Virus record (IMG/VR): IMGVR_UViG_2579778938_000006
Strand: one strand, 5' to 3'
DNA length: 36,312 nt
DNA from: a virus
Taxonomy: Duplodnaviria; Heunggongvirae; Uroviricota; Caudoviricetes
A program made the translations under genes and the position numbers. How positions within the stretch are numbered: position 1 is the first letter of the stretch; each line of letters starts with the position of its first letter. The notes under the pieces are model-generated. The model had not been told where the DNA came from, did not search any database, and saw only the letters and a list, made by a program, of their open reading frames with translations. Positions 1 through 33,479 of this stretch are shown one piece after another.

Positions 1-756
1 TTACGGGGTAATGCCAACCGCTGCCGCCACTTTGTCGCCACTAGTGCTTTGTTTTTCGAATTCATCTAAGGCTCTTTCAACATCAGAAAGATACTCTTTG
101 AATGAGTTCAAGATCATGCTTAACGAGCCCCCCATAAATAGGACCTGTTTTCCATCTTTTTTAAAAAAATCAGGATATTTTTCTATAAGTTCAATAATGC
201 TTTTAATATTTTGCCCGTCGTTTTCTAAGTATTTTGCATCATTATGCGCACAACTGTTTCTTAATTTTGTTATTTTTTTGATATTCGAATAGTGGGATGT
301 TGACTTCATCCCTATCATTTTTTTGATAAATAGATGGCTCCTCTCAAATCCACTTCCTTTGAGATCTGAAACATTTATAGGAGAATGATGTCTATTAGCA
401 AAGTTGTTACAGAATTTTTCTATTTCGTGTTCAAAAATTCCGAATATAGTTAAGAATACTGACCTGCGGATAATACTTGGGTAGTATTCTAAAAACATTT
501 CATCGAGATCTAGCGATGAGCTGGTGAGTCCCATGTAATGATCAATTGACTGGTATACACCATCTTCCGGAGATATTTCAATTATATATTCTTCAGGTCC
601 TTTGTCTTTATATTCTGCTATGCCCTTAGCGATTGATGATTCGCTATGAGTGATTAACGTCTCGATAATATCAAATGTTAAAGAGAAGTCGAATATTGGT
701 AATTGAAACAAAAACTTAACCATGCTTGAGCCTTTAAGAATCTGATTTAGTAACAT
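1..756 (-). CDS. Hypothetical cargo protein (~240-251 aa) with RNxxAH (HEPN-like) motif; candidate Abi/defence or toxin protein
   Basis: AT-rich ORF downstream of int on the same strand; alternative start at 723 (MVKF...) has an AAAGG Shine-Dalgarno and avoids the overlap with int; contains LRNSCAHN; last codons cross the attL core. Confidence 0.55.
   Translation of the reverse strand: MLLNQILKGSSMVKFLFQLPIFDFSLTFDIIETLITHSESSIAKGIAEYKDKGPEEYIIEISPEDGVYQSIDHYMGLTSSSLDLDEMFLEYYPSIIRRSVFLTIFGIFEHEIEKFCNNFANRHHSPINVSDLKGSGFERSHLFIKKMIGMKSTSHYSNIKKITKLRNSCAHNDAKYLENDGQNIKSIIELIEKYPDFFKKDGKQVLFMGGSLSMILNSFKEYLSDVERALDEFEKQSTSGDKVAAAVGITP
19..40. repeat. attL: attL core candidate (cgctgccgccactttgtcgcca)
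   Basis: Matches 33458..33479 at 21 of 22 positions; lies just beyond the 3' end of int as in P2-like prophages. Confidence 0.6.
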
Positions 757-1765
757 CCAAAGTTGCTAGTGGATTGAAACGAAGAGCTGTCTCTAAGTGA
801 TCAGGTGATAGATGAGCATAACGCATAGTCATTTTTATGTCGTGATGTCCGAGGATTTTTTGCAAAGCAAGGATGTTTCCACCCGACATCATGAAATGCG
901 CCGCAAACGTATGGCGCAGAACGTGTGTCAGTTGACCGCGAGGGAGTACGATAGACGTTTTTTCCATCACAGATAAAAATTGAAAATAGCAGTCTGTGAA
1001 GAAATTGAACCCATCAAGCGCCATGATCTCTTCGTAAAGGTCTTTACTGATAGGGATGCTTCTGTTTTTCTTCCCTTTCGTTCTTACAAAGGTAATTCGG
1101 TATTTGGTTACCTGTGAGCGGGTAAGATTTACGGCTTCACGCCAGCGTGCGCCTGTGCTTAAGCATATCTTAACTACCAGTGCCAGTATTGGGTCCTGAC
1201 GTTTGCAATCAGCCAGCAATTCAACAATCTGCTCATGAGTAAGCCATGCCATCTCCTTTTCTGCGATGGTGAATTTTCGCATGTTCTCCAGTGGGTTCGG
1301 ATACGACCATTCGCCAAGGCGGGATAGTTCGCTAAAAACACTACTTAGATAGCTTTGCTCCAGGTTAATGGTGACCGGGCTTGCTCCTTTCTTCCATTTC
1401 TCGCTGAAGTAGATCTCGCCTGTCAGGCGTTTATCTCGATAGTGGGCAAACATTTTAGAGGTGAGATCAGTTGCAAGGGGATTGCCCAGAGCGTCAACCA
1501 TCAGCAGCAATTTGTCATAGACATGCTGCCCAGCAGTCAGTGATTTACCATGTAGTTTGAACCATAGCTCAACCACGTCTTTCAGTGTTCGACGATCCAC
1601 TGATTCACCTAGCCAGGGCTTTGCTTCGGTTTCTTCCATCGTGTGACGCTCAAAAGCCAGTGCTTCGCCTTTGGTGGCGAATTGTTTACGCACACGACGC
1701 CCACTACGTCCGGCGGGGTAACATTCGCAAAGCCATTTTCCTGTGGTGAGTTTTCGTACAGCCAT
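734..1765 (-). CDS. int: Tyrosine integrase (P2/186 Int family)
   Basis: Translation has conserved tyrosine-recombinase blocks (LSTGARWREA, HVLRHTFAAHFM, ILGHHDIKMTMRYAHL); likely start MAVRKLTTGKW at 1765 rather than the upstream ATG at 1921. Confidence 0.9.
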   Translation of the reverse strand: MAVRKLTTGKWLCECYPAGRSGRRVRKQFATKGEALAFERHTMEETEAKPWLGESVDRRTLKDVVELWFKLHGKSLTAGQHVYDKLLLMVDALGNPLATDLTSKMFAHYRDKRLTGEIYFSEKWKKGASPVTINLEQSYLSSVFSELSRLGEWSYPNPLENMRKFTIAEKEMAWLTHEQIVELLADCKRQDPILALVVKICLSTGARWREAVNLTRSQVTKYRITFVRTKGKKNRSIPISKDLYEEIMALDGFNFFTDCYFQFLSVMEKTSIVLPRGQLTHVLRHTFAAHFMMSGGNILALQKILGHHDIKMTMRYAHLSPDHLETALRFNPLATLDVTKSDS

Positions 1766-1953
1766 AAAAAATGCCCTCCAATAGAGAGCATTTTTACTGT
1801 ATGCATAACCAGTGTCAATGTATGAAATCCTACGACCATACATCTCACTGAAGCCATAATTAAGTTGGCTATTCTTTTTGCTATGTGAGCATGTAATTTT
1901 TGCGTTTAACCTGCGGCTCATTTTTATTTTAGGCGCAGATATAAAAGCAAAAG

Positions 1954-2145
1954 TTATCGTGAGTTTTTAGTACAGATTTTTTTGGATTTACTAATAGTTC
2001 CATCATTGCAAACGAATTTGCCATCTGAGGTACAGTGAGAAACACCTCCCTTTTTCCCTGAACAGGGATAATTTCTAGCATAGGTAGTTAGTGGGTTTAA
2101 TAACAAAGAACATGACAAAACCACAAAAAATACCTTACCAAGCAT
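1954..2145 (-). CDS. Small (63 aa) predicted secreted, lysine-rich, 4-Cys peptide in the cI-int operon
   Basis: Strong SD (GGAGGA) 5 nt upstream of ATG, 16 bp after the cI stop; N-terminal hydrophobic signal-like segment [23 protein letters not shown]; AT-rich. Confidence 0.5.
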
Positions 2146-2160
2146 AGTTTCCTCCCGGTA

Positions 2161-2736
2161 CTATTTAACATACTTGACTGTTAAACTTATAATTTTACCA
2201 ATTATTTCAATGTCTTCTATCTTGCATTCGAAGGCTCTGTTTCCACCCTCGACGAAGATTCTTCCACCGGGTAAACGAGTAATGTCACGGATCGTTATTT
2301 CGCCATCAATACTTATTACCCATTTACCATCACGTATATCATCAAATTCCTTATCACAAATAAATTCAGAATTATTATCTGTGATTACAAAAAGATTCTT
2401 GAATACCGACGGTAGAAATTCCCTATCGAAAATATAAAAACCGTCTTCACACAAGGCCCCATCAGATAATACATATTTAGCAACTTCCATAGTATTTGTA
2501 TTACCTGAAGTTTGCTTTGAACCATGCCCGGTTGTGAGCCAATTAAGCGAGGTGCCCGTTTCAAGGGCGCACTGGATTACCCATTCTGCGGGGAATGAGT
2601 CACGCATGTAGCGTGTGGCGAGTGTACTTTTAGAGATTCCTAAATGATCGCACAACGCCTGTCGAGTCTTGAATCCATAAGCTTCTACCATGCGCTCTAT
2701 AGCGCCTCGTCCGCCTTTCTCCAAATTCATGGTCAC
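2161..2736 (-). CDS. cI: CI-type immunity repressor (186 CI-like, 191 aa, N-terminal HTH)
   Basis: Position immediately upstream of int on the same strand and divergent from apl/cII; HTH-like segment LCDHLGISKSTLATRYMR; size matches 186 CI rather than the ~100 aa P2 C. Confidence 0.8.
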   Translation of the reverse strand: MTMNLEKGGRGAIERMVEAYGFKTRQALCDHLGISKSTLATRYMRDSFPAEWVIQCALETGTSLNWLTTGHGSKQTSGNTNTMEVAKYVLSDGALCEDGFYIFDREFLPSVFKNLFVITDNNSEFICDKEFDDIRDGKWVISIDGEITIRDITRLPGGRIFVEGGNRAFECKIEDIEIIGKIISLTVKYVK

Positions 2737-2754
2737 TCCAAGTGAACTTTTGTC

Positions 2755-2783
2755 TTGACGATTTCACTGTGCGATCGTATGTT
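2755..2783 (+). promoter_or_regulatory. Candidate rightward lytic promoter (pR-like): -35 TTGACG, 17-nt spacer, -10 TATGTT
   Basis: Sigma70-like hexamers in the cI/apl switch region upstream of apl. Confidence 0.35.
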
Positions 2784-2855
2784 TATGGTGTTCACAAAAT
2801 ACAAACGATCCGTATTCGTCCTGATTAATCATCATTAAACGAGGAATGTTGCATC

Positions 2856-3077
2856 ATGAGACCTAACATTTCAATCACTCTTACCACGCCTCATGTGACT
2901 ATTGAACGCTATAGCGAGCTGACAGGGCTGTCCATCGATACTATCAATGACATGTTGGCTGATGGACGCCTTATCCGTCACCGTTTGCGCAAAGATAAAA
3001 AACGCGAAAAAGTGATGATCAACATAGCAGCCATGACCGTTGATGCGCTTTCAGAATGCAATCTAAACCTTAATTAG
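2856..3077 (+). CDS. apl: Apl/Cox-like excisionase-transcriptional regulator (73 aa)
   Basis: First gene of the rightward early operon facing cI; small basic protein; positional equivalent of 186 Apl / P2 Cox. Confidence 0.6.
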
Positions 3078-3103
3078 TTCGATTCTGAAATACATCAGAG
3101 GCA

Positions 3104-3619
3104 TTGACCATGTTTGATTACCAAGTTTCCAAACATCCACATTTTGATGAAGCCTGTCGTGCATTCGCACTGCGCCACAATCTGGTGCAACTGGCAGAAC
3201 GTGCAGGTATGAATGTGCAGATTCTGCGGAACAAACTGAACCCAGCTCAACCTCATTTATTAACCGCACCAGAAATCTGGCTGCTTACCGATCTGACTGA
3301 AGATTCAACGCTGGTAGATGGTTTTCTGGCACAGATTCATTGTCTGCCATGTGTACCGATTAATGAGGTGGCAAAAGAGAAACTGCCACATTACGTCATG
3401 AGTGCAACCGCAGAGATCGGGCGTGTTGCTGCAGGTGCGGTGTCTGGCGATGTAAAAACCTGTGCCGGTCGTCGTGATGCTATCAGCAGCATTAACTCTG
3501 TAACACGACTGATGGCGCTGGCGGCTGTTTCATTGCAGGCCCGTTTACAGGCTAATCCTGCGATGGCGAGTGCAGTTGATACCGTGACTGGCCTCGGTGC
3601 TTCATTTGGTTTGCTGTGA
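3104..3619 (+). CDS. cII: CII-like lysogeny-establishment activator (171 aa)
   Basis: Second gene of the early operon; size and position as 186 CII. Confidence 0.6.
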
Positions 3620-3626
3620 GGTGCTT

Positions 3627-3827
3627 ATGCTGACGAAAGAACCATCATTTGCATCGCTGCTGGTTAAACAAAGCCCGGCAATGCATTACGGTCACGGCTG
3701 GATCATGGGGGAGGATGGTAAACGCTGGCATCCGTGCCGTTCACAAGATGAATTGCTGGCAGAACTATCTACGAAAAAACGGGGGAACAAATGGCTATTG
3801 AAGGCGCTGCGGCGACTGTTCCATTAA
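3627..3827 (+). CDS. Hypothetical early protein (position of 186 fil)
   Basis: ORF with GAGGTG SD; start taken at internal ATG 3627 after the cII stop. Confidence 0.4.
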   Translation: MLTKEPSFASLLVKQSPAMHYGHGWIMGEDGKRWHPCRSQDELLAELSTKKRGNKWLLKALRRLFH

Positions 3828-4132
3828 GCCCCGGTGAACGCCTGAATGGACTTAATCACATAGCGGAATTAAGGGCGAAAGTTTTTGGCCTGAATATTGA
3901 GTCAGAGCTTGAGCGGTTTATTAAAGATATGCGTGATCCACGGGATATCAATAACGAACAAAATAAACGAGCACTGGCAGCCATATTCTTTATGGCAAAA
4001 ATTCCGGCTGAACGTCATAGCATCAGCATCAATGAGCTGACCACTGACGAAAAGCGGGAGTTGATTAAAGCAATGAATCATTTTCGTGCAGTGGTGAGCT
4101 TATTTCCCAGACGGCTAACCATGCCGAATTAA
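3791..4132 (+). CDS. Hypothetical early protein (113 aa)
   Basis: ORF with GGGGGAA SD in the early operon. Confidence 0.45.
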   Translation: MAIEGAAATVPLSPGERLNGLNHIAELRAKVFGLNIESELERFIKDMRDPRDINNEQNKRALAAIFFMAKIPAERHSISINELTTDEKRELIKAMNHFRAVVSLFPRRLTMPN

Positions 4133-4199
4133 CCAACTAATGAAATTAATGGCGTAAACCCGCCGAGCATCCCTTTATCTAAATTCAGGAGAATTGATT

Positions 4200-4433
4200 A
4201 TGCGTAATATTGAAATCCTCACGACTAAAACCGGACCGGATGATGCTGGGCTTAATATTTTACTGACAGAGGCTCGTCTGGAAGAACGCCGGGCAAGGGC
4301 TGAAGCAATGGCAGCTCGCCTTGATAGCCTGGCGTGTCATATCTCATCCCGTCAGCTAAACCACGTGGAAGCGGCAGAACTGCTGCGTGTGACTGCTGAA
4401 GCAATCCAGAACGAAGCGCAGGAGATCCACTAA
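4200..4433 (+). CDS. Hypothetical early protein (77 aa)
   Basis: AGGAG SD upstream; ATG at 4200. Confidence 0.45.
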   Translation: MRNIEILTTKTGPDDAGLNILLTEARLEERRARAEAMAARLDSLACHISSRQLNHVEAAELLRVTAEAIQNEAQEIH

Positions 4434-4660
4434 TGGCTGATGCAATGGATCTCGTACAGCAGCGCGTTGAAGAAGAACGCCAGCGCCATATCCGTGCTGC
4501 CCGTGCCAAAACACCGGGCGTGTCTCGCGTGCTTTGCATTGAGTGTGAAGCGCCAATTCCGCCAGCACGCCGCCGTGCCATTCCGGGTGTGCAGCTTTGC
4601 ATTACCTGCCAGGAAATTGCAGAGCTGAAAGGCAAACATTACAACGGAGGTGCTGTATGA
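4433..4660 (+). CDS. TraR/DksA-family C4 zinc-finger protein
   Basis: CIECEAPIP...(17 aa)...CITCQ pattern; P2 orf82-like position upstream of the replication gene. Confidence 0.7.
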   Translation: MADAMDLVQQRVEEERQRHIRAARAKTPGVSRVLCIECEAPIPPARRRAIPGVQLCITCQEIAELKGKHYNGGAV

Positions 4661-5514
4661 GCACCATCCTGAAATGGGCGGGAAATAAAATCGCCATTAT
4701 GTCCGAACTGAAAAAACACCTTCCTGCTGGCCCGCGACTGGTTGAACCTTTCGCGGGTTCCTGTGCTGTGATGATGGAGACGGATTACCCCAGCTATCTT
4801 GTTGCGGATATTAATCCTGATTTAATCAACCTCTATAAAAAGGTTGCTGCTGATTGCGAGGCGTTTATATCTCGTGCCAGAGCTTTATTTGAGGAAGCAA
4901 ACAGGGAGGTGGCTTATTACAACATAAGGCAGGAGTTTAATTACTCCACTGAAATTACTGATTTCATGAAAGCGGTATATTTCCTGTATCTCAATCGTCA
5001 TGGTTACCGTGGATTATGTCGCTATAACAAGAGCGGGCATTTCAACATTCCGAACGGTAATTATAAAAATCCGTATTTCCCTGAAAAAGAAATTCGCGCA
5101 TTTGCAGAGAAAGCCCAGCGTGCAACGTTTATCTGCGCAAGCTTTGATGAAACGCTGGCGATGCTGCAGGTGGGGGATGTGGTGTATTGCGATCCGCCGT
5201 ATGACGGTACGTTTTCCGGCTATCACACTGATGGCTTCACTGAAGATGACCAGTATCACCTGGCATCCGTTCTTGAACATCGATCATCTGAAGGTCATCC
5301 GGTCATTGTTTCTAACAGTGACACATCCCTGATTCGTTCGCTGTATCGCAATTTCACTCACCACTACATCAAGGCAAAACGCAGCATCGGCGTGTCGGCT
5401 GGCGAGAGTAAATCTGCAACAGAAATCATTGCTGTTTCCGGGGCGCGCTGCTGGGTGGGATTTGATCCTTCGCGTGGCGTGGATAGTTCTGCCATGTACG
5501 GAGTGCGTGCATGA
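4657..5514 (+). CDS. dam: DNA adenine (N6) methyltransferase, Dam family
   Basis: Motif I FAGSCAV and catalytic DPPY; N-terminal WAGNK; ATGA overlap with the upstream gene. Confidence 0.85.
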
Positions 5515-7925: not shown

Positions 7926-8017
7926 TTACGCGGGTTAACAATTCGTGCTCTTAATAATACCAGGCATATCAGGCTGATGAACGTAAAAAAACGTTTTACA
8001 TCAGTAAGATTATTATA

Positions 8018-8037
8018 TACTGTAAATATAAACAGTG
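8018..8037 (+). promoter_or_regulatory. LexA (SOS) box TACTGTAAATATAAACAGTG overlapping a candidate promoter (-35 TTTACA 7995..8000)
   Basis: CTGT-N8-ACAG with AT-rich spacer, about 40 bp upstream of the tum-like start. Confidence 0.75.
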
Positions 8038-8078
8038 GTTATGTGTACAGTATTGCTTGTGGTGTCATAGGAGGAAAA

Positions 8079-8267: not shown

Positions 8268-8277
8268 GGTGACTTTT

Positions 8278-9016: not shown

Positions 9017-10135
9017 ATGTATCTTTTCAAGTATTACCGTCCGGACTTCTTCTTCGAGAAAGCTATTCGTTATAATGAATTATATTTTTCCGCTCCTGCG
9101 CAATTGAATGATCCTAATGATCTCAATATAGATTATCGTTTTGATAATAAATTGAAATTATGGGATATTTTATTGCGTTCTCCTTGCGATAAATCCTATA
9201 AAAATTTGAGTCACATATTAGATTTGAGTAATTTGAATATACATAAGGGATTGAATCGTATTTTTAGAGGAAAAAAAATAAAAAGTAGCATTGAGTCATT
9301 AGATAGCCTGTTTGACTCACACGTTGATGAGATACGTAAGATCATAAATGATGGTTTACTACCTATCAATGTGATTAATTCCGCTATTTATGGGAATATT
9401 CCTGAACCACGCCAATTTTTGGTCTCACTTTGCGAGAACAGTATCAAAGAAAGGTTGTATAGGAAAATAGTTCCTGCAGTATTCAGTGTGTCATTTTCAG
9501 CTAATGCGTTAGATCGTATGATGTGGGCGCATTATGCTGCAGGCTTTAGTGGTTGTGTTGTGATTTATGAAACGCAGGATTTTAATATTAATGGCGTACC
9601 ACATCCTGGAATGAAGTTAAGAGAAAATTTATTTTCATCAGATAAAATTAATTTTCCAGTTAAGCCAATAAAATATAGTAATCAAGCTAAAGAGGTTTCA
9701 CTTCTAGACCCAAGCGCAAATGTTGCAGAGTTATTTTTAACTAAAAATAGATTTTGGAGATATGAAGCTGAATATCGAATGTTTATTCCAGAGGCAAATG
9801 CAGGAATAGGGAGTGAGCGGCATGTTCAAAGACACGTAAATCGAAATATTGGACATGTTTTTCATCATGATGCTAATGTTGTTAAAGGGATCATTTTTGG
9901 TCCTAGAATGTGTGAAATGAAAAAAGAAAGCATATGGAATTGTATCAAGTCAAATATGGAGAATTCAAATTCAACAATATGTTATTTTTTTGACTCTGAG
10001 TTATCAGCATCAGGAAAGATTACTATTTCAAAAGGGCAACGAGCGGAAAAAATGAAAAATTTCCCTTTGTTCAGGAACAAGTTAAGTCAGACGGAAATGG
10101 CTAAAGTTTTGAAGGAAATTGGCATTACGAACTAA
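9017..10135 (+). CDS. Hypothetical 372-aa cargo protein, DUF2971-like N-terminus; candidate anti-phage gene
   Basis: Very AT-rich; N-terminus LFKYYRPDFFFEKAIRYNELYFSAPAQLNDPNDL resembles the DUF2971 signature as I recall it; own terminator downstream; in the P2 old/tin hotspot position. Confidence 0.6.
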   Translation: MYLFKYYRPDFFFEKAIRYNELYFSAPAQLNDPNDLNIDYRFDNKLKLWDILLRSPCDKSYKNLSHILDLSNLNIHKGLNRIFRGKKIKSSIESLDSLFDSHVDEIRKIINDGLLPINVINSAIYGNIPEPRQFLVSLCENSIKERLYRKIVPAVFSVSFSANALDRMMWAHYAAGFSGCVVIYETQDFNINGVPHPGMKLRENLFSSDKINFPVKPIKYSNQAKEVSLLDPSANVAELFLTKNRFWRYEAEYRMFIPEANAGIGSERHVQRHVNRNIGHVFHHDANVVKGIIFGPRMCEMKKESIWNCIKSNMENSNSTICYFFDSELSASGKITISKGQRAEKMKNFPLFRNKLSQTEMAKVLKEIGITN

Positions 10136-10201
10136 CCTAACAACAGTGCATGCCTATGCTGCCTGAATTTGCATGACCGTTTGAGGATCGTTTTTGCTAA
10201 G

Positions 10202-10225
10202 GCCCGCCAGAACTGGCGGGCTTTT
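10202..10225 (+). terminator. Rho-independent terminator (GCCCGCC-agaact-GGCGGGC-TTTT)
   Basis: 7-bp GC stem, 6-nt loop, T-run; 67 bp downstream of the 372-aa gene stop. Confidence 0.7.
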
Positions 10226-10270
10226 GCGTGGATCAGGCACCTGCATGAAAACCACTACACAAAGCGGGCA

Positions 10271-10283
10271 GGCGTGGCGGGGA
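10271..10283. other. cos: cos-like motif GGCGTGGCGGGGA (possible cohesive-end site)
   Basis: Matches the first 13 nt of the P2/186 19-nt cohesive end as I remember it (GGCG[A/T]GGCGGGGAAAGCA); diverges after that. Confidence 0.3.
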
Positions 10284-10409
10284 TACGAGCGCGCGCTAGA
10301 AACGTTTACTGATATTCTTGTAGTACATTGCATTTTTCTTTTTTTATGTCATATCATTAGCCATTTGAATAGGACATTATTATCAATTTGTTGTCTCTGA
10401 GGATAAGTT

Positions 10410-12191
10410 ATGAATTTTGATGCAACACCACTAAATATAAAAAACATTCTATCTGTAAAACAAAGATATGTTATTCCTCGTAATCAACGTGAGTTTAGTT
10501 GGGAAAAGCTTCAGCTTGAAGAGTTATGGCAAGATATTGTCAGAAACATAAGGTTGAATGAAGATGGACAGAACTTGGAGTGTTCAGAATATTTTATAGG
10601 GACTATTGTTCTTTCTGGAGCAGATAGTGATGATGTATTAGAAGTGGTTGATGGACAACAACGATTTTCAGTTATTACTATATTGCTTTCATTAATATCG
10701 CGTAAATTGCGTTCCTTAGGGCAAGATTCATTAGCGGATGATATATTTAAAACATATATCGTTACTGTGAGTCCTACATTTAGCAGAAGCCAATTAGCTT
10801 CAAATGGTGAGACATTTATTGAAAAATTAGCAAAAAATAGCGATAGAACATATTTTAAGTTAAAATATCAAGATCGCGAAGAGCATCAAGTTGATGAATC
10901 TTGTGAAGAGGATGTACGTATAAGTTATGCAGGAATTTTTCTTTCTAGAAAACTAGGGAGGAAATCACTCTGTTCTGCATTGTTGCGAGATGGTGCAAAA
11001 CATTATAATAACCAAGATTATATATTTTGTTTGACTGCTGTATATAGAATGATTACCAATTATTTGAAGTTGGTAAAAATATCTGTAGGTAAGGAGGATG
11101 ATGCTTATGATATTTTTGAAGTGTTGAATGCTCGAGGGATAAACTTAAGTTCAATTGATTTGATAAAGAATAAAGTATTCCAAACTTGCACTCAAACATA
11201 TCCGGTAGATATTGCAAAAACAAAATGGGATTATATCGTTACTCAAATTGAGTCTAGGGATAGTAATAGCACTATTGCTGATTATATTAGAACGTGGTGG
11301 CTTTCTAAGTATAATTATATTGGAGAAGATCAACTTTATCGTGCTTTTAAACGTGAGATTCAAGATGAGAATACTTTATTGTCATCAGCATCATTTCTGA
11401 ACGAATTATATGATGATGTTGAATTATACTGTAAAATAATAGCGCCAAATACAGATGACTGGCCTCAACCTGATCAGCGTGAAATTTACAACTCGTTAAA
11501 AGCATTCGAGATTTTTAATGTGAGTATTCCTCGACCATTTGTACTCTCATTACTTAGAAAACGTAAAGAGAAACCGAGAGCCCTTACACAATCAATGCTG
11601 ATAGAATGTTTGAAGTCCTTAGAGTCATTTCACTTTAAGTTTAATGCAGTATGTCGTCTAAGACCATCTGGAATCGATGCAAAATATTCTGTATTAGCAG
11701 TAAGAATGAATAAGGCATTAAATAAAAGAGATGTTGAGGGTGTTATTAATGACGCGTTAGATTATTTTACACAGAAAGGGCCTTCAGAAAATATATTCAA
11801 ACAAGCATTTTCAAAGAATATTGTTTATACAAATAAAAAGTCTGGGCAAAGGAAGTTGATTGTTTATATTTTTGACAAATTGGAACGTATCAGACGAGGG
11901 ACACGAGAGTTAAAAATGGATATAGTTTCTTTGGAACACATATCATCTCAAAGCAAAACTAACGAGTCAGTCGTGGGTATGATTGGTAATTTACTACCAC
12001 TCTGTTTTTCACTTAATGAAGATTGCAAAAATTATGAGTTGCACAAAAAAATAGAATCTTATAAAAAATCTGATTTAAAATTAGTTACAGAGTTTGTTAG
12101 TGAGTCAGAAGCAAGAGAACATAAATGGGATGATTCATTAATAAAAGAAAGAACAGATAGCTTGGCGTTAGAAACGTTTGCTAAAATATAA
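10410..12191 (+). CDS. DUF262 (ParB-like/GmrS) + DUF1524 (His-Me finger/GmrD) fusion nuclease, 593 aa; GmrSD/BrxU-like type IV restriction candidate
   Basis: Motifs VIPRNQREFSWE, VDGQQRFSVI, FEVLNARGINLSSIDLIKNK (DUF262) and SLEHISSQ...GNLLPL...NEDCKN (DUF1524-like); AT-rich; GAGGA SD. Confidence 0.8.
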   Translation: MNFDATPLNIKNILSVKQRYVIPRNQREFSWEKLQLEELWQDIVRNIRLNEDGQNLECSEYFIGTIVLSGADSDDVLEVVDGQQRFSVITILLSLISRKLRSLGQDSLADDIFKTYIVTVSPTFSRSQLASNGETFIEKLAKNSDRTYFKLKYQDREEHQVDESCEEDVRISYAGIFLSRKLGRKSLCSALLRDGAKHYNNQDYIFCLTAVYRMITNYLKLVKISVGKEDDAYDIFEVLNARGINLSSIDLIKNKVFQTCTQTYPVDIAKTKWDYIVTQIESRDSNSTIADYIRTWWLSKYNYIGEDQLYRAFKREIQDENTLLSSASFLNELYDDVELYCKIIAPNTDDWPQPDQREIYNSLKAFEIFNVSIPRPFVLSLLRKRKEKPRALTQSMLIECLKSLESFHFKFNAVCRLRPSGIDAKYSVLAVRMNKALNKRDVEGVINDALDYFTQKGPSENIFKQAFSKNIVYTNKKSGQRKLIVYIFDKLERIRRGTRELKMDIVSLEHISSQSKTNESVVGMIGNLLPLCFSLNEDCKNYELHKKIESYKKSDLKLVTEFVSESEAREHKWDDSLIKERTDSLALETFAKI

Positions 12192-12197
12192 GTTCAG

Positions 12198-12218: not shown

Positions 12219-12227
12219 TTATTCAAT

Positions 12228-19208: not shown

Positions 19209-19209
19209 A

Positions 19210-20984: not shown

Positions 20985-20989
20985 AATGT

Positions 20990-21520
20990 TTACGCACTTA
21001 ATAAACTTAAATAACTTTTTATGCTTTGGCAAAAAGGGAAAAGGTCTATTTTAATTTTCCAGTTTTTTTTGTTTTGAACCCCAGAAGCAATAATAGAACC
21101 ATCCCAATATTTTATTCCATTTTTGCCGGTCTTTTTTGTTAACTCAAAACTTAATGCGTGAATAATTTTATTGCAGCATTCGCGTATAGAACCTTTAACA
21201 TGACCATCTATAACAAAAAGTATATTTTCATGTTCTTCAAATGCTTCTTTCTCAGGTGAGTAATCTGGGTTCCACTCATGTTCACTAGTGTCTTGGAGAA
21301 TTCGTAGTTTTGTACAAAGGCTAATAAGATTGTTGCTAATGGTATATTCCAACCATCCGTTGTACGATAACTCCTCCATTTCAAATTCAGTTACTATAGA
21401 ATCATCATATACTTTCTGTGTGGAATATATACGCTGTAAATAAAATTCAGATGAACAGCATAATTGCTCAATTATTCTTGCGTGTTCTTCTATAGCGTAA
21501 TAATCAATTGGATGGCTCAT
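20990..21520 (-). CDS. Hypothetical moron protein (176 aa; 189 aa if started at 21559) between tail genes S and V on the opposite strand
   Basis: AT-rich ORF antiparallel to the late operons; AAAGG SD before ATG 21520; convergent with S, divergent from V. Confidence 0.6.
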   Translation of the reverse strand: MSHPIDYYAIEEHARIIEQLCCSSEFYLQRIYSTQKVYDDSIVTEFEMEELSYNGWLEYTISNNLISLCTKLRILQDTSEHEWNPDYSPEKEAFEEHENILFVIDGHVKGSIRECCNKIIHALSFELTKKTGKNGIKYWDGSIIASGVQNKKNWKIKIDLFPFCQSIKSYLSLLSA

Positions 21521-21551
21521 TCTTTTACCTTTCTTCGATTGGAATTGTATT

Positions 21552-21569
21552 TGTGTCATTTACCACACA
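21552..21569. promoter_or_regulatory. TGT-N12-ACA dyad (Ogr/Delta site) upstream of V (PV-like late promoter)
   Basis: TGTgtcatttaccacACA centred ~55 bp upstream of the V ATG. Confidence 0.45.
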
Positions 21570-21615
21570 AGGACGTATTGATGCCATAGATTCAAGGTCC
21601 GTGCAACCTAACCCT

Positions 21616-26204: not shown

Positions 26205-26216
26205 ATACCGTCATTT

Positions 26217-26234
26217 TGTGTGAATAACGGTACA
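26217..26234. promoter_or_regulatory. TGT-N12-ACA dyad (Ogr/Delta site) upstream of FI (PF-like late promoter)
   Basis: TGTgtgaataacggtACA centred ~85 bp upstream of the FI ATG. Confidence 0.5.
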
Positions 26235-26310
26235 ACTGCGCTTAGCTGCTTGTCAGACACAATCACTTCAACATAGGGCGAAGCCTAATCCAATCAGGAG
26301 GTTCGCCACT

Positions 26311-27483
26311 ATGGCTCAGGATTACCACCACGGAGTGCGCGTTGTTGAAGTCAACGAAGGCACTCGATCCATTACCACGGTGAGCACCGCCATCGTGGGC
26401 ATGGTCTGCACGGGCGATGATGCCGATGCAAAAATGTTCCCTCTTAATAAACCCGTGCTGATCACTGATGTGCTTACTGCCAGCGGTAAGGCGGGTGAAT
26501 CCGGTACGCTGGCCCGTTCGCTGGATGCCATCGCTGACCAGGCAAAACCCGTGACCGTTGTTGTGCGTGTGCCGCAGGGTGAAACGGAAGAAGAAACCAC
26601 GACCAATATCATCGGCGCAGTGACTGCTGAAGGTAAAAAAACTGGTATGAAAGCCCTGTTATCTGCCCAGTCACAGCTCGGTGTTAAACCGCGCATTCTC
26701 GGCGTGCCGGGGCACGATAATAAAGCCGTTGCTACTGAGTTGCTGGGCGTGGCGCAAAGCCTGCGTGGGTTTGCTTACCTGTCAGCGTATGGCTGCAAGA
26801 CGGTGCAGGAGGCGATCACTTACCGTAAAAACTTCAGTCAGCGTGAAGGGATGCTGATTTGGCCTGACTTTACTGGCTGGGACACGGTGCTGAATGCCGA
26901 CGCAACGGCATATGCCACCGCCCGTGCGCTTGGTCTGCGTGCCAAAATTGATGAGCAGACAGGGTGGCACAAAAGCCTGTCCAACGTGGGCGTGAACGGT
27001 GTCACCGGAATTTCTGCTGATGTGTTCTGGGATCTGCAGGACCCGGCAACTGATGCGGGACTGCTTAACCAGAACGATGTTACCACACTTATCCGCAAAG
27101 ACGGCTTTCGCTTCTGGGGTTCCCGCTGTCTGAGTGATGACCCACTCTTTGCCTTTGAAAACTACACCCGCACGGCGCAGGTGCTGATGGACACGATGGC
27201 AGAAGCGCCAATGTGGGCGGTCGACAAACCGCTGAATCCGTCGCTGGCCCGCGACATTATCGAAGGTATCCGCGCCAAAATGCGCAGCCTGATCAGTCAG
27301 GGCTATCTCATTGGTGGCGATTGCTGGCTGGATGAGTCGGTGAACGACAAAGACACTCTGAAAGCTGGAAAACTCACCATCGACTACGACTACACACCAG
27401 TGCCGCCACTTGAAAACCTGATGCTGCGTCAGCGCATCACCGATCAGTACCTGGTGAATTTCGCCAGCCAGGTCAGCGCGTAA
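26311..27483 (+). CDS. FI: Contractile tail sheath protein FI
   Basis: 390 aa; AGGAGG SD; synteny. Confidence 0.9.
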
Positions 27484-27492
27484 GGGGACAAC

Positions 27493-28008
27493 ATGGCTTT
27501 ACCACGCAAATTAAAACACCTCAACCTGTTTAACGACGGGAACAACTGGCAGGGGATCGTTGAGTCGCTGACGCTGCCGAAATTCACCCGCAAATATGAG
27601 AAGTATCGCGGCGGCGGAATGCCGGGAGCAGTGGATGTGGATCTGGGGCTTGATGACAGTGCGCTGGACACAGAATTTTCCATTGGTGGTACTGAACTGC
27701 TGCTGTTTAAGCAGATGGGCAAAGCCACGGTGGATGGCATCCAGTTGCGCTTTACCGGCTCTATCCAGCGTGATGATACCGGGGAAGTGCAGGCCGTGGA
27801 GCTTGTGGTGCGTGGACGTCACAAAGAAGTGGATTCCGGCGAGTGGAAGACGGGCGAAAGCAACACCACCAAAGTGACCAGTACCAACAGCTACGCGAAG
27901 CTGACTATCAATGGTGAGGTGCTCTATGAAGTGGACCTTATCAACATGGTGGAAATTGTGGACGGTGTGGACCTGATGGAAGCGCACCGCAACGCCCTCG
28001 GCCTCTGA
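27493..28008 (+). CDS. FII: Tail tube protein FII
   Basis: 171 aa; synteny. Confidence 0.9.
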   Translation: MALPRKLKHLNLFNDGNNWQGIVESLTLPKFTRKYEKYRGGGMPGAVDVDLGLDDSALDTEFSIGGTELLLFKQMGKATVDGIQLRFTGSIQRDDTGEVQAVELVVRGRHKEVDSGEWKTGESNTTKVTSTNSYAKLTINGEVLYEVDLINMVEIVDGVDLMEAHRNALGL

Positions 28009-28062
28009 TGTATCTGAACGGCGCGGAATGCCGCGCCAGAACCTAATTTACAGGACAGCAAA

Positions 28063-28365
28063 ATGAGCGATAAGCAGACTGAAAAGACCATTCAACTGGA
28101 TACCCCCATCATGCGTGGTAAAACTGAAATCACCGAAATTGTGCTGCGTAAACCGCAGTCCGGTGCGCTGCGCGGTACACGCCTGCAGGCCATTATGGAT
28201 ATGGATGTGAACGCGATGATGACCGTGATCCCCCGCATCTCCAGCCCGGCGCTGACTGCACAGGAAATTGCAGAGATGGACCCGGCAGATCTCACTGCCA
28301 TGTCGGTTGAGGTTGTCACTTTTTTGTTGAAGAAGTCGGTGCTTGCCGGTTTACCGACAGCCTGA
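28063..28365 (+). CDS. E: Tail assembly chaperone E
   Basis: 100 aa upstream of the tape measure gene; contains the TTTTTTG slippery site near its 3' end. Confidence 0.8.
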   Translation: MSDKQTEKTIQLDTPIMRGKTEITEIVLRKPQSGALRGTRLQAIMDMDVNAMMTVIPRISSPALTAQEIAEMDPADLTAMSVEVVTFLLKKSVLAGLPTA

Positions 28366-28499
28366 CGGTTGATGATCTGGTGGCAGATATCGCCACCATT
28401 TTTCACTGGCCGCCATCCGTTACTGACGTTATGCCGCTGACCGAAGTGCTGGAATGGCGGTATAAAGCGATTCAGAGAAGCGGGGCCAACGATGAGTGA
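28063..28499 (+). CDS. E': E+E' fusion chaperone made by programmed -1 frameshift at TTTTTTG (28320..28326)
   Basis: The -1 frame after the slippery heptamer stays open for 57 codons (VEEVGACRFTDSL...QRSGANDE) and stops at 28497..28499, overlapping the T start; analogous to P2 E/E' and lambda G/GT. Confidence 0.7.
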
Positions 28500-31400
28500 T
28501 AATAACCTGCGCCTGCAGGTCATTCTTAATGCGGTTGACAAACTCACCCGCCCATTCCGTGCTGCACAGGCCAGTTCGAAAGAGCTGGCTGGCGCAATCA
28601 GAAACTCCCGTGACGCATTAAAGCAACTCAATCAGGCGGGTAACAACCTGGAAAAATTTCGCAAGCTGCAGGCCGATAACAAAAAGTTAGGCGACAGGCT
28701 GAACTATGCCAGACAGAAGGCAAATTTGCTTAGTTCTGAGCTGGAAGCGATGGAACAACCATCACAAAGGCATCTTGTGGCTTTAGGTCGGCAAACGCTG
28801 GCAGTCCAACGCCTGGAAGAACAACAAAAATATTTGCAGAAGCAAACGGCGCTTGTGCGTGCAGAACTGTACCGGGCGGGAATTTCTGCGAAAGATGATG
28901 CGGGAGCAACTGCCCGTTTAGCCCGTGAAACATCACGTTATAACCAGGAATTGTCGAAACAGGAGGCGCGGCTGAAGCGACTGGGGGAAGCTCAGCGCAG
29001 GATGAATGCAGCGCGTGCCAGTTATGCCCGTTCGCTGGAGGTGCGCGATCGCATCGCAGGAGCCGGAGCCACTACTACGGCTGCAGGGCTGGCAATGGGG
29101 ACGCCAGTGATGGCGGCAGTAAAAAGCTATACCAGCATGGAAGATGCCATGAAAGGTGTGGCAAAGCAGGTCAATGGTCTGCGTGACGATAATGGCATCC
29201 GCACTGCACGTTTTTATGAAATGCAGGATGCCATCAAAGCTGCCAGCGAACAGTTGCCGATGGAAAACGGTGCGGTGGACTTCGCTGCACTGGTTGAAGG
29301 TGGTGCGCGTATGAACGTCGCAAACCCTGACGACAGCTGGGAAGACCAGAAACGTGACCTGCTGGCCTTCGCCAGTACGGCAGCAAAGGCGGCAACAGCC
29401 TTTGAGCTGCCAGCGGATGAACTGTCAGAAAGTCTGGGGAAAATCGCCCAGCTCTACAAAATACCAACCCGCAATATTGAACAGCTCGGCGATGCGCTGA
29501 ACTATCTGGATGATAACGCCATGTCGAAAGGGGCGGACATCATTGATGTGATGCAACGTCTGGGCGGTGTGGCTGACCGTCTGGATTATCGTAAAGCGGC
29601 GGCACTGGGTTCCACCTTTCTGACACTGGGCGCTGCGCCGGAGGTTGCAGCCAGTGCAGCAAACGCGATGGTGCGTGAATTGTCCATTGCCACCATGCAA
29701 AGCAAGAGTTTCTTTGAAGGAATGAATCTGCTGAAACTCAATCCTGAAGTGATTGAAAAGCAGATGACGAAGGATGCGATGGGAACTATCCAGCGCGTGC
29801 TGGAGAAGGTGAACGCACTGCCGCAGGACAAGCGTCTGTCTGCCATGACCATGTTGTTTGGTAAAGAGTTTGGCGATGACGCGGCGAAACTGGCAAACAA
29901 CCTGCCGGAACTGCAGCGTCAGTTAAAACTGACAGCGGGCAATGATGCGCTCGGCTCCATGCAGAAAGAATCCGACATTAACAAGGATTCACTTTCTGCG
30001 CAGTGGTTGCTGGTCAAAACCGGAGCGCAGAACACCTTCAGCAGCCTGGGCGAAACGCTGCGCCAGCCGCTGATGGATATTCTGTACACGGTGAAAAGCG
30101 TCACGGGGGCGTTGCGTCGCTGGGTGGAAGCTAACCCGGAACTGACAGGCACACTGATGAAAGCATCGGCTGTTGTGGCTGCGGTGACCGTCGGCCTCGG
30201 CACCTTAGCGGTGGCGCTGGCTGCAGTGCTGGGGCCGCTGGCAGTGATCCGTCTGGGATTCTCTGTGCTGGGTATCAAAACGTTACCTTCCGTTACGGCA
30301 GCAGTAACTCGAACCAGCAGCGCGTTGTCCTGGCTGGCTGGCGCACCACTGGTACTGCTGCGACGCGGGCTTGCTTCATCGGGCAACGCTGCGGGTTTAC
30401 TTACTGCACCGTTGTCATCTTTGCGCCGCACGGCATCACTGACGGGAAATGTCCTGAAAACTGTAGCAGGTGCGCCGGTTGCACTTTTGCGGTCTGGATT
30501 ATCCGGTTTACGTGCTGTTGCTGTGATGTTTATGAATCCTCTGGCGGTACTGCGCGGTGGACTGGTCGCCGCAGGCACGGTGCTGCGAGTACTGGCATCT
30601 GGTCCACTGGCGATGCTGCGCGTTGCCCTGTATGCCGTATCTGGTCTGTTAGGTGCTCTGCTCAGTCCGATAGGTCTTGTGGTTACTGCACTGGCGGGCG
30701 TGGCGCTGGTTGTCTGGAAATACTGGCAACCCATCACCGCATTTCTTGGTGGCGTGGTGGAAGGATTCAAAGCGGCGGCAGGTCCCGTCAGTGCAGCATT
30801 CGAACCGCTTAAGCCCGTGTTCCAGTGGATTGGCGACAAAGTACAGGCGCTGTGGGGCTGGTTTACTGATCTGCTGACGCCCGTTAAGTCGACCTCTGCC
30901 GAACTGCAGAGTGCAGCGGCAATGGGGCGGCGATTCGGGGAGGCACTGGCGGAAGGGCTGAATATGGTCATGCATCCGCTGGACTCCCTGAAATCCGGCG
31001 TTTCCTGGTTGCTGGAGAAGCTCGGCATTGTCAGTAAAGAGGCCGCAAAGGCAAAACTGCCGGAAAGCGTGACGCGTCAGCAACCTGCGACGGTGAATGC
31101 AGACGGTAAAGTGATGATGCCATCGGGTGGTTTTCCATCATGGGGATATGGCTTTGCGGGGATGTATGACAGCGGCGGCTATATCCCGCGCGGGCAGTTT
31201 GGCATCGTCGGTGAAAACGGGCCGGAAATTGTTAACGGCCCGGCAAATGTGACCAGCCGGAGAAATACAGCTGCACTGGCTGCCGTTGTTGCCGGAATGA
31301 TGGGCGTTGCTGCCGCGCCTGCAGAGCTTCCACCGTTGCACCCTTTGGCACTTCCCGCGAAAGGCGGCGAAGCGATGGTGAGTCGTGCAGCCACTGTGCC

Positions 31401-31569
31401 GCCCGTTCAACGGATTGAGGCACCGATGCAGATCATCATTCAGACGCAGCCAGGACAAAGTGCGCAGGATATTGCGCGGGAGGTGGCCCGCCAGCTTGAT
31501 GAACGTGAACGCAGGCTGAAGGCAAAAGCCAGGAGTAACTACAGCGATCAGGGGGGATACGACGCATGA
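28492..31569 (+). CDS. T: Tail tape measure protein T (1025 aa)
   Basis: Long ORF after E/E'; coiled-coil-like N-terminal half, hydrophobic repeat region in the C-terminal half. Confidence 0.9.
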   Translation: MSDNNLRLQVILNAVDKLTRPFRAAQASSKELAGAIRNSRDALKQLNQAGNNLEKFRKLQADNKKLGDRLNYARQKANLLSSELEAMEQPSQRHLVALGRQTLAVQRLEEQQKYLQKQTALVRAELYRAGISAKDDAGATARLARETSRYNQELSKQEARLKRLGEAQRRMNAARASYARSLEVRDRIAGAGATTTAAGLAMGTPVMAAVKSYTSMEDAMKGVAKQVNGLRDDNGIRTARFYEMQDAIKAASEQLPMENGAVDFAALVEGGARMNVANPDDSWEDQKRDLLAFASTAAKAATAFELPADELSESLGKIAQLYKIPTRNIEQLGDALNYLDDNAMSKGADIIDVMQRLGGVADRLDYRKAAALGSTFLTLGAAPEVAASAANAMVRELSIATMQSKSFFEGMNLLKLNPEVIEKQMTKDAMGTIQRVLEKVNALPQDKRLSAMTMLFGKEFGDDAAKLANNLPELQRQLKLTAGNDALGSMQKESDINKDSLSAQWLLVKTGAQNTFSSLGETLRQPLMDILYTVKSVTGALRRWVEANPELTGTLMKASAVVAAVTVGLGTLAVALAAVLGPLAVIRLGFSVLGIKTLPSVTAAVTRTSSALSWLAGAPLVLLRRGLASSGNAAGLLTAPLSSLRRTASLTGNVLKTVAGAPVALLRSGLSGLRAVAVMFMNPLAVLRGGLVAAGTVLRVLASGPLAMLRVALYAVSGLLGALLSPIGLVVTALAGVALVVWKYWQPITAFLGGVVEGFKAAAGPVSAAFEPLKPVFQWIGDKVQALWGWFTDLLTPVKSTSAELQSAAAMGRRFGEALAEGLNMVMHPLDSLKSGVSWLLEKLGIVSKEAAKAKLPESVTRQQPATVNADGKVMMPSGGFPSWGYGFAGMYDSGGYIPRGQFGIVGENGPEIVNGPANVTSRRNTAALAAVVAGMMGVAAAPAELPPLHPLALPAKGGEAMVSRAATVPPVQRIEAPMQIIIQTQPGQSAQDIAREVARQLDERERRLKAKARSNYSDQGGYDA

Positions 31570-32051
31570 TGATGGTGCTGGGATTGTACGTGTTTATGCT
31601 GCGCACCGTGCCGTATCAGGAACTGCAGTATCAACGCAGTTGGCGACATGCGGCAAACAGCCGGGTAAACCGTCGTCCGTCCACGCAGTTTCTGGGACCG
31701 GAAAACGACATGCTGACGCTTTCCGGTGTTCTTATGCCGGAGATAACAGGCGGCAGGCTGTCGTTGCTGGCACTTGAGCAGATGGCAGAACAGGGGAAAG
31801 CATGGCCTCTGATTGAAGGCAGCGGCACGATTTACGGCATGTATGTGATTGAGGGACTGAATCAGACTAAAACGGAGTTTTTCCGCGACGGTATGCCGCG
31901 CCGGATTGAGTTCACCCTGTCGCTCAAACGGGTGGATGAATCCCTGTCCGATATGTTCGGTGATCTCAGTGCGCAGCTGAATAATCTGCAGGGAACGGCA
32001 ACATCTGCCTTAAGCGATATCAGTAAAACGGTGGGAGGGCTTCTGTCGTGA
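31566..32051 (+). CDS. U: Tail protein U
   Basis: 161 aa; synteny. Confidence 0.85.
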   Translation: MMMVLGLYVFMLRTVPYQELQYQRSWRHAANSRVNRRPSTQFLGPENDMLTLSGVLMPEITGGRLSLLALEQMAEQGKAWPLIEGSGTIYGMYVIEGLNQTKTEFFRDGMPRRIEFTLSLKRVDESLSDMFGDLSAQLNNLQGTATSALSDISKTVGGLLS

Positions 32052-33148
32052 ATTTCAGCTCTGAACTGCTTAACAAAGGCAACAAAACTCCCGCATTCAG
32101 CATCAGTATTGAGGGCAGGGATATCACCACTGTGCTGGACAACCGCCTGATTGGGCTGACGCTGACGGATAACCGGGGATTTGAAGCGGACCAGCTTGAT
32201 CTGGAACTGGACGACGCCGATGGAAAAATCGTGCTGCCGCGCCGTGGTACGGTCATTACGCTGGCGCTGGGCTGGAAGGGGCAGCCGCTTTTCCCGAAAG
32301 GGGCATTCACGGTGGACGAGATTGAACACACTGGCGCACCGGACCGCCTGACTATCCGGGCGCGAAGTGCTGATTTTCGGGAAACCCTGAATACCCGCCG
32401 TGAAAAATCGTGGCATAACACCACCATCGGGGAAGTGGTGAAGGAAATAGCCGCGCGGCACAAGCTGAAGATGGCACTGGGTAAAGAGCTGTCGGATAAG
32501 CCCGTGGAGCATATAGACCAGACTAATGAGAGTGACGGCAGTTTTCTGATGCGACTGGCGCGACAGTACGGTGCCATCGCGTCGGTGAAAAATGGCAATC
32601 TGTTATTCATCCGGCAGGGGCAGGGCAAAAGCGCCACTGGTAAACCACTGCCAGTGATCACTATCACACGCAAGGACGGCGACAGTCACCGATTTACCCT
32701 GGCAGATCGCGGAGCCTACACGGGCGTAATTGCCAGCTGGTTGCATACCCGTGAACCCGCGAAGAAAGAAAGCACCACGGTGAAGCGTAAGCGCAGAACT
32801 AAGAAGCAGAAGAAAGAGCCGGAAGCGAAGCAGGGCGATTACCTGGTGGGTACGGATGAAAACGTGCTGGTACTTAATCGCACCTATGCCAACCGGGGCA
32901 ACGCTGAACGGGCAGCGAAAATGCAGTGGGAACGTCTGCAACGCGGCGTTGCGTCATTCTCGCTACAACTGGCGGAAGGGCGGGCAGATCTCTACACGGA
33001 AATGCCTGTGAAGGTCAGTGGTTTTAAACAGCCGATAGATGATGCGGAATGGACCATTACGACTCTGACACATACCGTCAGCCCGGATAACGGTTTTACG
33101 ACCAGTCTGGAGCTTGAAGTGAGGATTGATGATTTCGAAATGGAATGA
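32048..33148 (+). CDS. D: Tail protein D (late gene D)
   Basis: 366 aa; synteny. Confidence 0.85.
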   Translation: MNFSSELLNKGNKTPAFSISIEGRDITTVLDNRLIGLTLTDNRGFEADQLDLELDDADGKIVLPRRGTVITLALGWKGQPLFPKGAFTVDEIEHTGAPDRLTIRARSADFRETLNTRREKSWHNTTIGEVVKEIAARHKLKMALGKELSDKPVEHIDQTNESDGSFLMRLARQYGAIASVKNGNLLFIRQGQGKSATGKPLPVITITRKDGDSHRFTLADRGAYTGVIASWLHTREPAKKESTTVKRKRRTKKQKKEPEAKQGDYLVGTDENVLVLNRTYANRGNAERAAKMQWERLQRGVASFSLQLAEGRADLYTEMPVKVSGFKQPIDDAEWTITTLTHTVSPDNGFTTSLELEVRIDDFEME

Positions 33149-33238
33149 TTCTTCGCAATGGAGAACTTTTAAGTTTGCAAAATGGAATAATGCGGTATCA
33201 TTATTGTGAATTTAGCAAAAATGGGGAGAACTCGAAAA

Positions 33239-33457
33239 ATGATGATTTGCCCACTGTGTGGAAGTGCCGCCCATACTCGCAGCAGTTTTCAGGTATCTTC
33301 ATTGACCAAAGAGCGTTACAACCAGTGCCAGAACATTAACTGCAGCCATACTTTTGTTACCCATGAAACTTTTGTTCGTTCGATTGCAACGCCAAAAGAG
33401 TCAAATCCGGTTCAGCCGCATCCAATGAAATCAGGACAGGTGGCGCTCTCTCTTTGA
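33239..33457 (+). CDS. ogr: Ogr/Delta-family zinc-finger late transcription activator (72 aa)
   Basis: MMICPLCGSAAHTRSS...ERYNQCQNINCSHTF matches the P2 Ogr Cys4 pattern (CPLC...CQNxNC); last phage gene before attR. Confidence 0.85.
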   Translation: MMICPLCGSAAHTRSSFQVSSLTKERYNQCQNINCSHTFVTHETFVRSIATPKESNPVQPHPMKSGQVALSL

Positions 33458-33479
33458 CGCTGCCGCCATTTTGTCGCCA
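33458..33479. repeat. attR: attR core candidate (cgctgccgccattttgtcgcca)
   Basis: Direct repeat of 19..40 (1 mismatch); located 1 bp after the ogr stop, before the ybjL terminator. Confidence 0.6.

Follow-up and report, generated by a model that had tools for sequence, protein, structure and literature searches.

Near-terminal 22-bp repeats of a P2-like prophage beside ybjL are probably integrase arm-type sites and not its attachment core

The 36,312-nt stretch of viral DNA analyzed here (IMG/VR record IMGVR_UViG_2579778938_000006; hereafter, the window) carries a P2-like prophage followed by host genes, and a copy of an imperfect 22-bp direct repeat lies near each end of the phage gene set. 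We found that these 2 copies are very likely the P and P′ arm-type binding sites for the integrase (Int) in a 186-type P2-like phage attachment site (attP) of the PhiECO1 class, whereas the true attachment core of the prophage, judged from sequence comparisons, is a distinct 14-bp sequence beside ybjL. An earlier, sequence-only reading of the window had recognized the repeat, the kind of phage, and the neighborhood of the insertion, but took the repeat for the prophage ends.

That the 22-bp repeat is real follows from the presence of 2 direct copies with 1 mismatch, matched by nothing in shuffled sequence. The window contains exactly 2 copies of the 22-mer CGCTGCCGCCAYTTTGTCGCCA, in direct orientation on the plus strand, at 19..40 (CGCTGCCGCCACTTTGTCGCCA) and 33458..33479 (CGCTGCCGCCATTTTGTCGCCA), and the copies are identical at 21 of 22 positions, as had been described, the sole difference being a C at window position 30 versus a T at 33469. 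With up to 3 mismatches allowed, no third copy was found in the window, and 100 shuffles yielded 0 matches. The right copy begins at the base directly after the ogr stop (TGA, 33455..33457) and lies upstream of the ybjL terminator hairpin (approximately 33544..33581), also in agreement with the sequence-only reading. The further claim that the repeat exactly brackets the int-to-ogr span does not hold, because the left copy sits within the final 42 nt of a minus-strand open reading frame (ORF) at 1..756, downstream of int (734..1765). Beyond the window's own lineage, the conserved part of the repeat amounts to 19 of its 22 bases (positions 4–22), with the first three (CGC) varying among other phages.

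If the repeat were the duplicated attachment (att) core, the prophage would extend from 19 to 33479 and the single mismatch would mark the crossover; the strongly non-random character of the repeat and the position of its copies near both ends of the phage gene set speak for this possibility. The junctions, however, lie elsewhere. We compared the right junction against 5426 complete E. coli genomes, of which ~1110 carry the same ogr-ybjL junction; in prophage-free genomes, homology with the window starts only at 33523 or 33535, that is, 43–55 nt further right than the repeat would require, and not at 33480. In the empty site of E. coli K-12, the rcdA stop is followed by TAGATAAGTTTTAGATAACAAAAAACCCATCAACC and then by the ybjL terminator, and the K-12 rcdA-ybjL region holds no match to the 22-mer even at 3 mismatches. 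On the left side, host homology begins ~75 nt further out: lysogens sharing the left end of the window (YZLc4-1, which is 100% identical over window 1..760, SHP24, and HS) run from an intact rcdA through TAGATAAATTTTAGATAACAAAAAACCCAT into phage DNA (TTATGTAAATGGGTTAG...), so that host sequence stops 75 nt short of window position 1, which itself lies 75 nt within phage DNA. In these 3 lysogens and in RM10466, the order is rcdA stop, core, and phage DNA, with the 22-mer ~92–110 nt inside. The insertion thus lies between rcdA (ybjK) and ybjL, as the sequence-only reading had proposed. That reading had also staked its case on the empty site containing the repeat and on where the junctions map in related lysogens, and both results go against it.

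Alignment of the bacterial attachment site (attB), 2 left junctions (attL), 2 right junctions (attR), and one contiguous attP left a single segment common to all four kinds of site, the 14-mer AACAAAAAACCCAT, which lengthens to 26 nt (TAAATTTYAGRYAACAAAAAACCCAT) if imperfect matches are included. Left of the 14-mer, host variants are seen in attL and phage variants in attR, which places strand exchange inside the 14-mer. In the window, the 14-mer is present in a single copy at 33535..33548, within the U-tract and stem base of the terminator of ybjL, just past rcdA, as part of the imperfect 26-nt attR core at 33523..33548 (plus strand; TAAATTTCAGGCAACAAAAAACCCAT). The attL copy of the core lies 75–88 nt to the left of position 1 and hence outside the window; judging from the related lysogens, the source genome is expected to read rcdA stop, TAGATAAATTTTAGAT, AACAAAAAACCCAT, TTATGTAAATGGG... 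to the left of position 1. The contiguous attP of Klebsiella phage KP12 and Escherichia phage ESSI2_ev129 consists of the 19-mer, ~55 nt, the core, ~92 nt, and the 19-mer again; the repeat is therefore not single-copy in attP, its 2 copies, ~180 bp apart, flanking a different shared core. Annotated and published att sites of this phage class likewise correspond to the 14–20-nt AACAAAAAACCCAT core. In Klebsiella phage 4LV2017, attL and attR are annotated as (G)CAGGCAACAAAAAACCCAT, agreeing with the core mapped here, and for prophage PhiECO1 of E. coli HS, listed at 916812-948276 (Nilsson, Cardoso-Palacios, and Haggård-Ljungquist 2011, PMC3448106), the start and end coordinates both coincide with the first A of the 14-mer AACAAAAAACCCA, between rcdA and ybjL. 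PhiECO2 (ATCC 8739), PhiECO3 (CFT073), and Salmonella PhiSEN1 were assigned to the same site class as PhiECO1 (PMC3448106). Collectively, these results make it almost certain that the 22-bp repeat is not the att core.

The internal structure of the repeat is that of an arm site. Each 22-mer is composed of two 8-mers with starts 11 bp apart, TGCCGCCA-ytt-TGTCGCCA, at 22..29 and 33..40 in the predicted P′ (int-proximal) arm-type site (19..40, plus strand) and at 33461..33468 and 33472..33479 in the predicted P (ogr-proximal) site (33458..33479, plus strand). The lone mismatch, which had been suggested to mark the crossover point or post-integration drift, does not mark the crossover but lies within the 3 nt that separate the 8-mers, at a position where C, T, and A are all found among related phages. 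In P2-like phages, direct repeats flanking the core are the arm-binding sites for the N-terminal domain of Int, with the consensus tgTGGaCa for the P2 type and tgccGCCActt for the 186 type (Nilsson et al. 2011, PMC3448106). The sequence TGCCGCCAcTT of the window matches the 186-type consensus exactly, TGTCGCCA forming the second unit, and the RefSeq record of phage 186 lists predicted arm-type sites, YAYCGCCAYTY, as tandem 11-bp units on both sides of attP. From the attP comparison with KP12 and ESSI2_ev129, the repeats of the window flank the core in the same orientation. The window Int is 35% identical to P2 Int over its full length and carries in its N-terminus the W/E/Y residues (GKWLCECYP) of 186 Int (GGWICELYP), as opposed to the Y/D/R residues of P2 Int (GRYEVDIRP), and these residues have been proposed as discriminators of the 2 arm-site types (PMC3448106).

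On the circular phage genome, attP would accordingly be laid out as the ogr stop, the P arm (two TGYCGCCA 8-mers 11 bp apart), 20 nt, an IHF-like site, the core TAAATTTCAGGCAACAAAAAACCCAT, ~92 nt with candidate excisionase repeats, and the P′ arm (the same 19-mer) in the 3′ end of int. If the phage works as lambda, P2, and 186 do, a heterobivalent tyrosine integrase would use its N-terminal domain to hold the arm sites and its core-binding and catalytic domains to hold the core, and an IHF-induced bend in the P arm would let the arm-bound Int contact the core; it is from these systems that we infer actual binding by Int and IHF. At attB, strand exchange would take place within AACAAAAAACCCAT, in the ybjL terminator right after the rcdA stop. 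Upon integration, the P arm copy would come to lie 55 nt inside attR and the P′ arm copy 92 nt inside attL, so that both arm sites, being inside the prophage, would resemble terminal direct repeats.

Short direct repeats in attP may also be bound by a phage protein other than Int, such as the Cox/Apl-like excisionase, CI, or Ogr. The excisionase sites of 186 and P2 are themselves short direct repeats one helical turn apart and located in attP. Nevertheless, we regard this alternative as improbable, given that the Cox/Apl sites of P2 and 186 are one-sided, confined to the interval between the core and the P′ arm, whereas the motif of the window occurs on both sides, fits the published Int arm consensus, and co-occurs with the W/E/Y type of Int N-terminal domain. 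Moreover, there are better excisionase candidates in the core-to-P′ interval. There, within the 75 nt that precede window position 1, direct repeats AAAACAATAAGTTAG (2 copies) and GGTGGT (2 copies) are found ~10 bp apart, and we consider them candidate binding sites for the Cox/Apl-like excisionase encoded at 2856..3077.

The assignment of the repeats to Int arm binding draws further on their conservation. A scan of IMG/VR with TGCCGCCANTTTGTCGCCA returned at least 120 stretches representing 76 distinct contexts. In coding contexts, the motif lies 53–72 nt past the catalytic tyrosine of integrases with differing tails, and 36 of the 37 distinct ORFs linked to the motif are of the W-E-Y type, the 37th not being an integrase. 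In non-coding contexts, the flanks are often unrelated and yet the 19-mer recurs, and an IHF-like YAANNNNTTGATW is positioned 19–20 nt downstream of the motif in 21 of 39 cases, compared with 0 of 34 coding contexts. The corresponding site of the window, AATCATGATGTTA (33500..33512, minus strand), matches WATCAANNNNTTR at 12 of 13 positions and lies 20 nt past the P arm site; since matches to the IHF consensus are no more frequent than expected window-wide (37 found versus 34 expected), a lone match is not significant and its weight comes from the conserved offset only. In ESSI2_ev129, which we found via homology and not via the motif, the P arm is located beside a different gene and is accompanied by TGTCGCCACTTTGTCGCCA, a perfect IHF consensus at offset 20, and by the same core.

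Four of the motif-bearing IMG/VR contigs (L014, L030, L074, and L081) are short, with arm sites merely 8–10 kb apart. The possibility that such two-copy contigs are satellites was rejected: L030 is what an internal deletion has left of a prophage at this rcdA-ybjL site, running from int through tail genes and ogr to ybjL.

Several considerations weigh against Int arm binding. Even the arm sites of 186 are annotated as "predicted." Taken singly, the 8-mer TGYCGCCA has 13 occurrences in the window versus ~4 expected, the extra copies being scattered, unphased, in GC-rich late genes; single 8-mers thus carry little information and only phased pairs do. The IMG/VR set was gathered by the motif, and conservation inside the 8-mers is circular in this set because the scan required them, leaving the flanks, the spacer position, the IHF offset, and ESSI2_ev129 as the unbiased evidence. 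In addition, the int-side copy also codes for GDKVAA in native integrases, and part of its conservation could therefore stem from coding.

The last point is also the starting point for a view of the repeat as functionless, in which the left copy is no more than a leftover of the sequence coding for the Int tail and the right copy is a fossil of duplication or illegitimate recombination. A weak resemblance to the 22-mer within the 3′ end of rcdA (p ~0.0025), hinting at old sequence exchanges, could be taken in the same sense. However, the int-side copy is 100% identical where Int is no longer encoded by it, namely in lysogens where inserted cargo has ended its coding role; the right copy, which is non-coding, is kept amid unrelated P-arm sequence, with an IHF-like site 19–20 nt away; and the 2 copies have the same geometry as the Int arm sites in the annotation of P2. 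A functionless repeat is thus highly improbable, and the P and P′ arm-type sites of Int remain the favored explanation. The rcdA resemblance itself (TGACGCTG----CATTTTGTCACC; K-12, L001 1416..1437, outside the window) lies ~85 nt upstream of the core and scores 24 in local alignment, compared with 14.2 ± 2.1 in shuffles. We rejected it as attB or an ancestral site, as lysogens and non-lysogens have the same intact rcdA, with a single half-site in it, and the resemblance is probably due to chance.

The core coincides with a transcription terminator. On the minus strand it provides the stem base and the U-tract (GGGUUUUUUGUU) of the intrinsic terminator of ybjL, whose hairpin is located at 33544..33581 (minus strand; ΔG −24.1 kcal/mol, z = −2.3), the U-tract at 33535..33543 (plus-strand coordinates) being within the core. 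A simple terminator scan of 33150..33750 returned no terminator; the hairpin is seen by folding, and its loop or bulge is beyond the scanner's rules. In attP and attL, a hairpin supplied by the phage (CCCATTTAYRTAAATGGG) precedes the same U-tract, and this hairpin together with the shared U-tract probably terminates the leftward cI-int transcript. With each partner bringing its own hairpin to the shared U-tract, both ybjL and the phage operon would retain a terminator after recombination.

The region between int and the P′ arm has been remodeled in the window. The ORF at 1..756 (minus strand) encodes a low-GC (~36%), 251-aa, HEPN-like cargo protein with an RNSCAH (Rx4H) motif, the RefSeq homologue of which is 240 aa long and corresponds to window 1..723. 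Searches of Pfam, PADLOC, and PHROGs gave only weak or uninformative matches, namely HEPN_RiboL-PSP (E = 0.005, below cut-off), HEC-01A (E = 0.005), an abortive-infection phrog (E = 0.003), and phrog_21382 (E = 9e-10). The cargo is a clean insertion of ~720 nt that directly adjoins the arm site on its inner side and separates it from the catalytic region of Int; the native Int tail was lost, and the cargo ORF ends with the 13 final codons and the stop of the old int. Window 1..42 (minus strand), which now provides the last 13 codons of the cargo ORF, is a relic of the ancestral int 3′ end, carrying the codons for SGDKVAAAVGITP and the stop; in 4LV2017 and KP12 the same segment is the end of int itself and codes for ...LPSGDKVAAAVGITP*. 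This segment is carried by 1104 of the 5426 E. coli genomes, where it is mostly annotated as integrase and homology ends at 42, and the cargo ORF is present in only 25 of the 1104. The integrase encoded at 734..1765 (minus strand; Int_N and Phage_integrase domains), whose N-terminal arm-binding domain is of the 186 type, matches the 4LV2017 integrase at 98% identity up to RFNPLATL and diverges thereafter, the native 14-aa C-terminal tail being replaced by DVTKSDS.

At least 15 different contexts bear other cargo in the int-tail slot. Across several integrase lineages, unrelated low-GC modules of 0.35–2 kb are found between the Int catalytic region and the arm site (window 41..49 and 757..770; loci L130, L003, L044, L066, L068, L074, L091, L112, L036, L128, L127, L025, L083, and L043), and the products include HEPN-like, HNH, DUF4917, DUF4156 lipoprotein, membrane, Gly-repeat, and HATPase-like proteins. 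In the int lineage of the window, all eight insertions fall within an interval of at most 9 nt just inside the arm site and cut the Int C-terminal tail. We tentatively suggest, as a possibility somewhat short of even, that the int-proximal arm site is a precise cargo slot set by the geometry of attP and by the int-operon terminator in the core, and that loss of the Int tail is costly or regulatory for recombination. Under this proposal, attP geometry would dictate the slot because the arm site must remain ~90 nt from the core, and the terminator would do so in that the cargo is expressed with the lysogenic operon. A minor defense hotspot between int and att in P2-like phages was noted by a 2026 survey (PMC13586616), and the novelty of the proposal, if true, would be limited to the fine anatomy of the slot and its link to the arm site.

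The remaining genes are in keeping with the P2-like identity of the prophage, which the sequence-only reading had assigned and which is substantiated by int, the repressor, the Cox/Apl-like gene, the late genes, and ogr. The 186-type CI immunity repressor is encoded at 2161..2736 (minus strand; Phage_CI_repr, E = 3e-33; Phage_CI_C, E = 6e-27), and the Cox/Apl-like excisionase and repressor, a candidate recombination directionality factor, at 2856..3077 (plus strand; phrog_575, E = 6e-31). The late-gene activator ogr/B (33239..33457, plus strand; Pfam Ogr_Delta, E = 7e-22) is the last phage gene before attP. The host flank comprises ybjL, encoding an aspartate:alanine antiporter (33693..35378, minus strand), ybjM (35648..36025, plus strand), and grxA (36055..36312, minus strand). 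Neither tRNA nor tmRNA genes were found in the window, in line with the earlier remark that no tRNA is visible at the site, and a gene of either type was discarded as the integration target.

Accessory genes were observed at 3 further positions. A 63-aa ORF at 1954..2145 (minus strand), assigned to the YdcA family in RefSeq homologues, lies between int and cI, where RM10466 instead holds a DUF4276 protein and an AAA ATPase, which makes this a second variable slot. At the known gpA-gpQ hotspot, a low-GC (~33–37%) gene pair (9017..12191, plus strand) encodes a DUF2971/PDC-S31-like protein (372 aa) and a GmrSD-type HEC-06/Orf5-like type IV restriction protein (593 aa). Finally, a 189-aa ORF of lower GC content (~43%; 20990..21559, minus strand; phrog_18838) is located on the opposite strand amid tail and baseplate genes, at a position occupied in RM10466 by a DUF6216 gene.

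The core, the integration site, and the arm-site biology are already published for the PhiECO1 class and are textbook matter for P2/186-like phages. The present case illustrates that near-terminal direct repeats of prophages are not always the att core and that the arm sites of heterobivalent integrases can mimic terminal repeats. Calling the ends at the 22-mer would move the right boundary by ~55 nt and the left one by ~110 nt, so that the host would wrongly be credited with the IHF site, the core, the candidate excisionase sites, and the terminator of the int operon. Getting the ends right is important both to pipelines that delimit prophages and to those who design attB/attP tools.

The arrangement described here can be compared with several known systems. 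In lambda, attP contains the arm-type sites P1, P2, and P′1–P′3, and a heterobivalent integrase joins arm and core sites via IHF bends; the arm sites are present solely in attP and hence lie inside the prophage at attL and attR. The lambda arm motif is unrelated to that of the window, and the number and arrangement of the sites differ. Phage 186 shares the CGCCA-centered motif in tandem units phased by 11 bp, direct repeats flanking the core, a W/E/Y-type Int N-terminal domain (61% identity over the first 60 aa), CI-type immunity, a Cox/Apl-like excisionase, and an extra gene between int and attP (orf69 in 186). By comparison with 186, the window phage has 2 plus 2 units, the ybjL terminator as its target, and a 14-nt identical core, and its first unit has TG, not YA, at positions 1–2.

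The attP of phage P2 (NC_001895) is annotated as the Int P arm followed by IHF, the core, and Cox, and finally the Int P′ arm, which starts 8 nt inside the 3′ end of the int coding sequence. With P2 the window phage shares this order, counting its IHF-like site and candidate excisionase repeats, as well as the location of the P arm right after ogr, the location of the P′ arm within the last codons of (ancestral) int, and the composition of each arm from two 8-mers 11 bp apart. The arm-to-core distances are 35 and 86 nt in P2 versus 43 and 92 nt in the window phage. Unlike in the window phage, the P2 8-mer is TGTGGACA, read by a Y/D/R-type N-terminal domain; the core sequence and the attB locations also differ, and in P2 ogr and the P arm are separated by a terminator, which the window phage lacks.

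The PhiECO1-class prophages (E. coli HS, ATCC 8739, and CFT073, and Salmonella PhiSEN1) and 4LV2017 (Elveevirus) have the same rcdA-ybjL attB, core, and arm sites as the window phage, and ~1100 of the 5426 complete E. coli genomes have a prophage at this attB. Among named phages, the nearest relative is Klebsiella phage 4LV2017, with an Int that is 98% identical and a late region 96% identical over 88% of its length. To this shared plan, the window phage adds the 251-aa cargo in the int tail, found in 25 genomes only, and its own accessory genes between gpA and gpQ.

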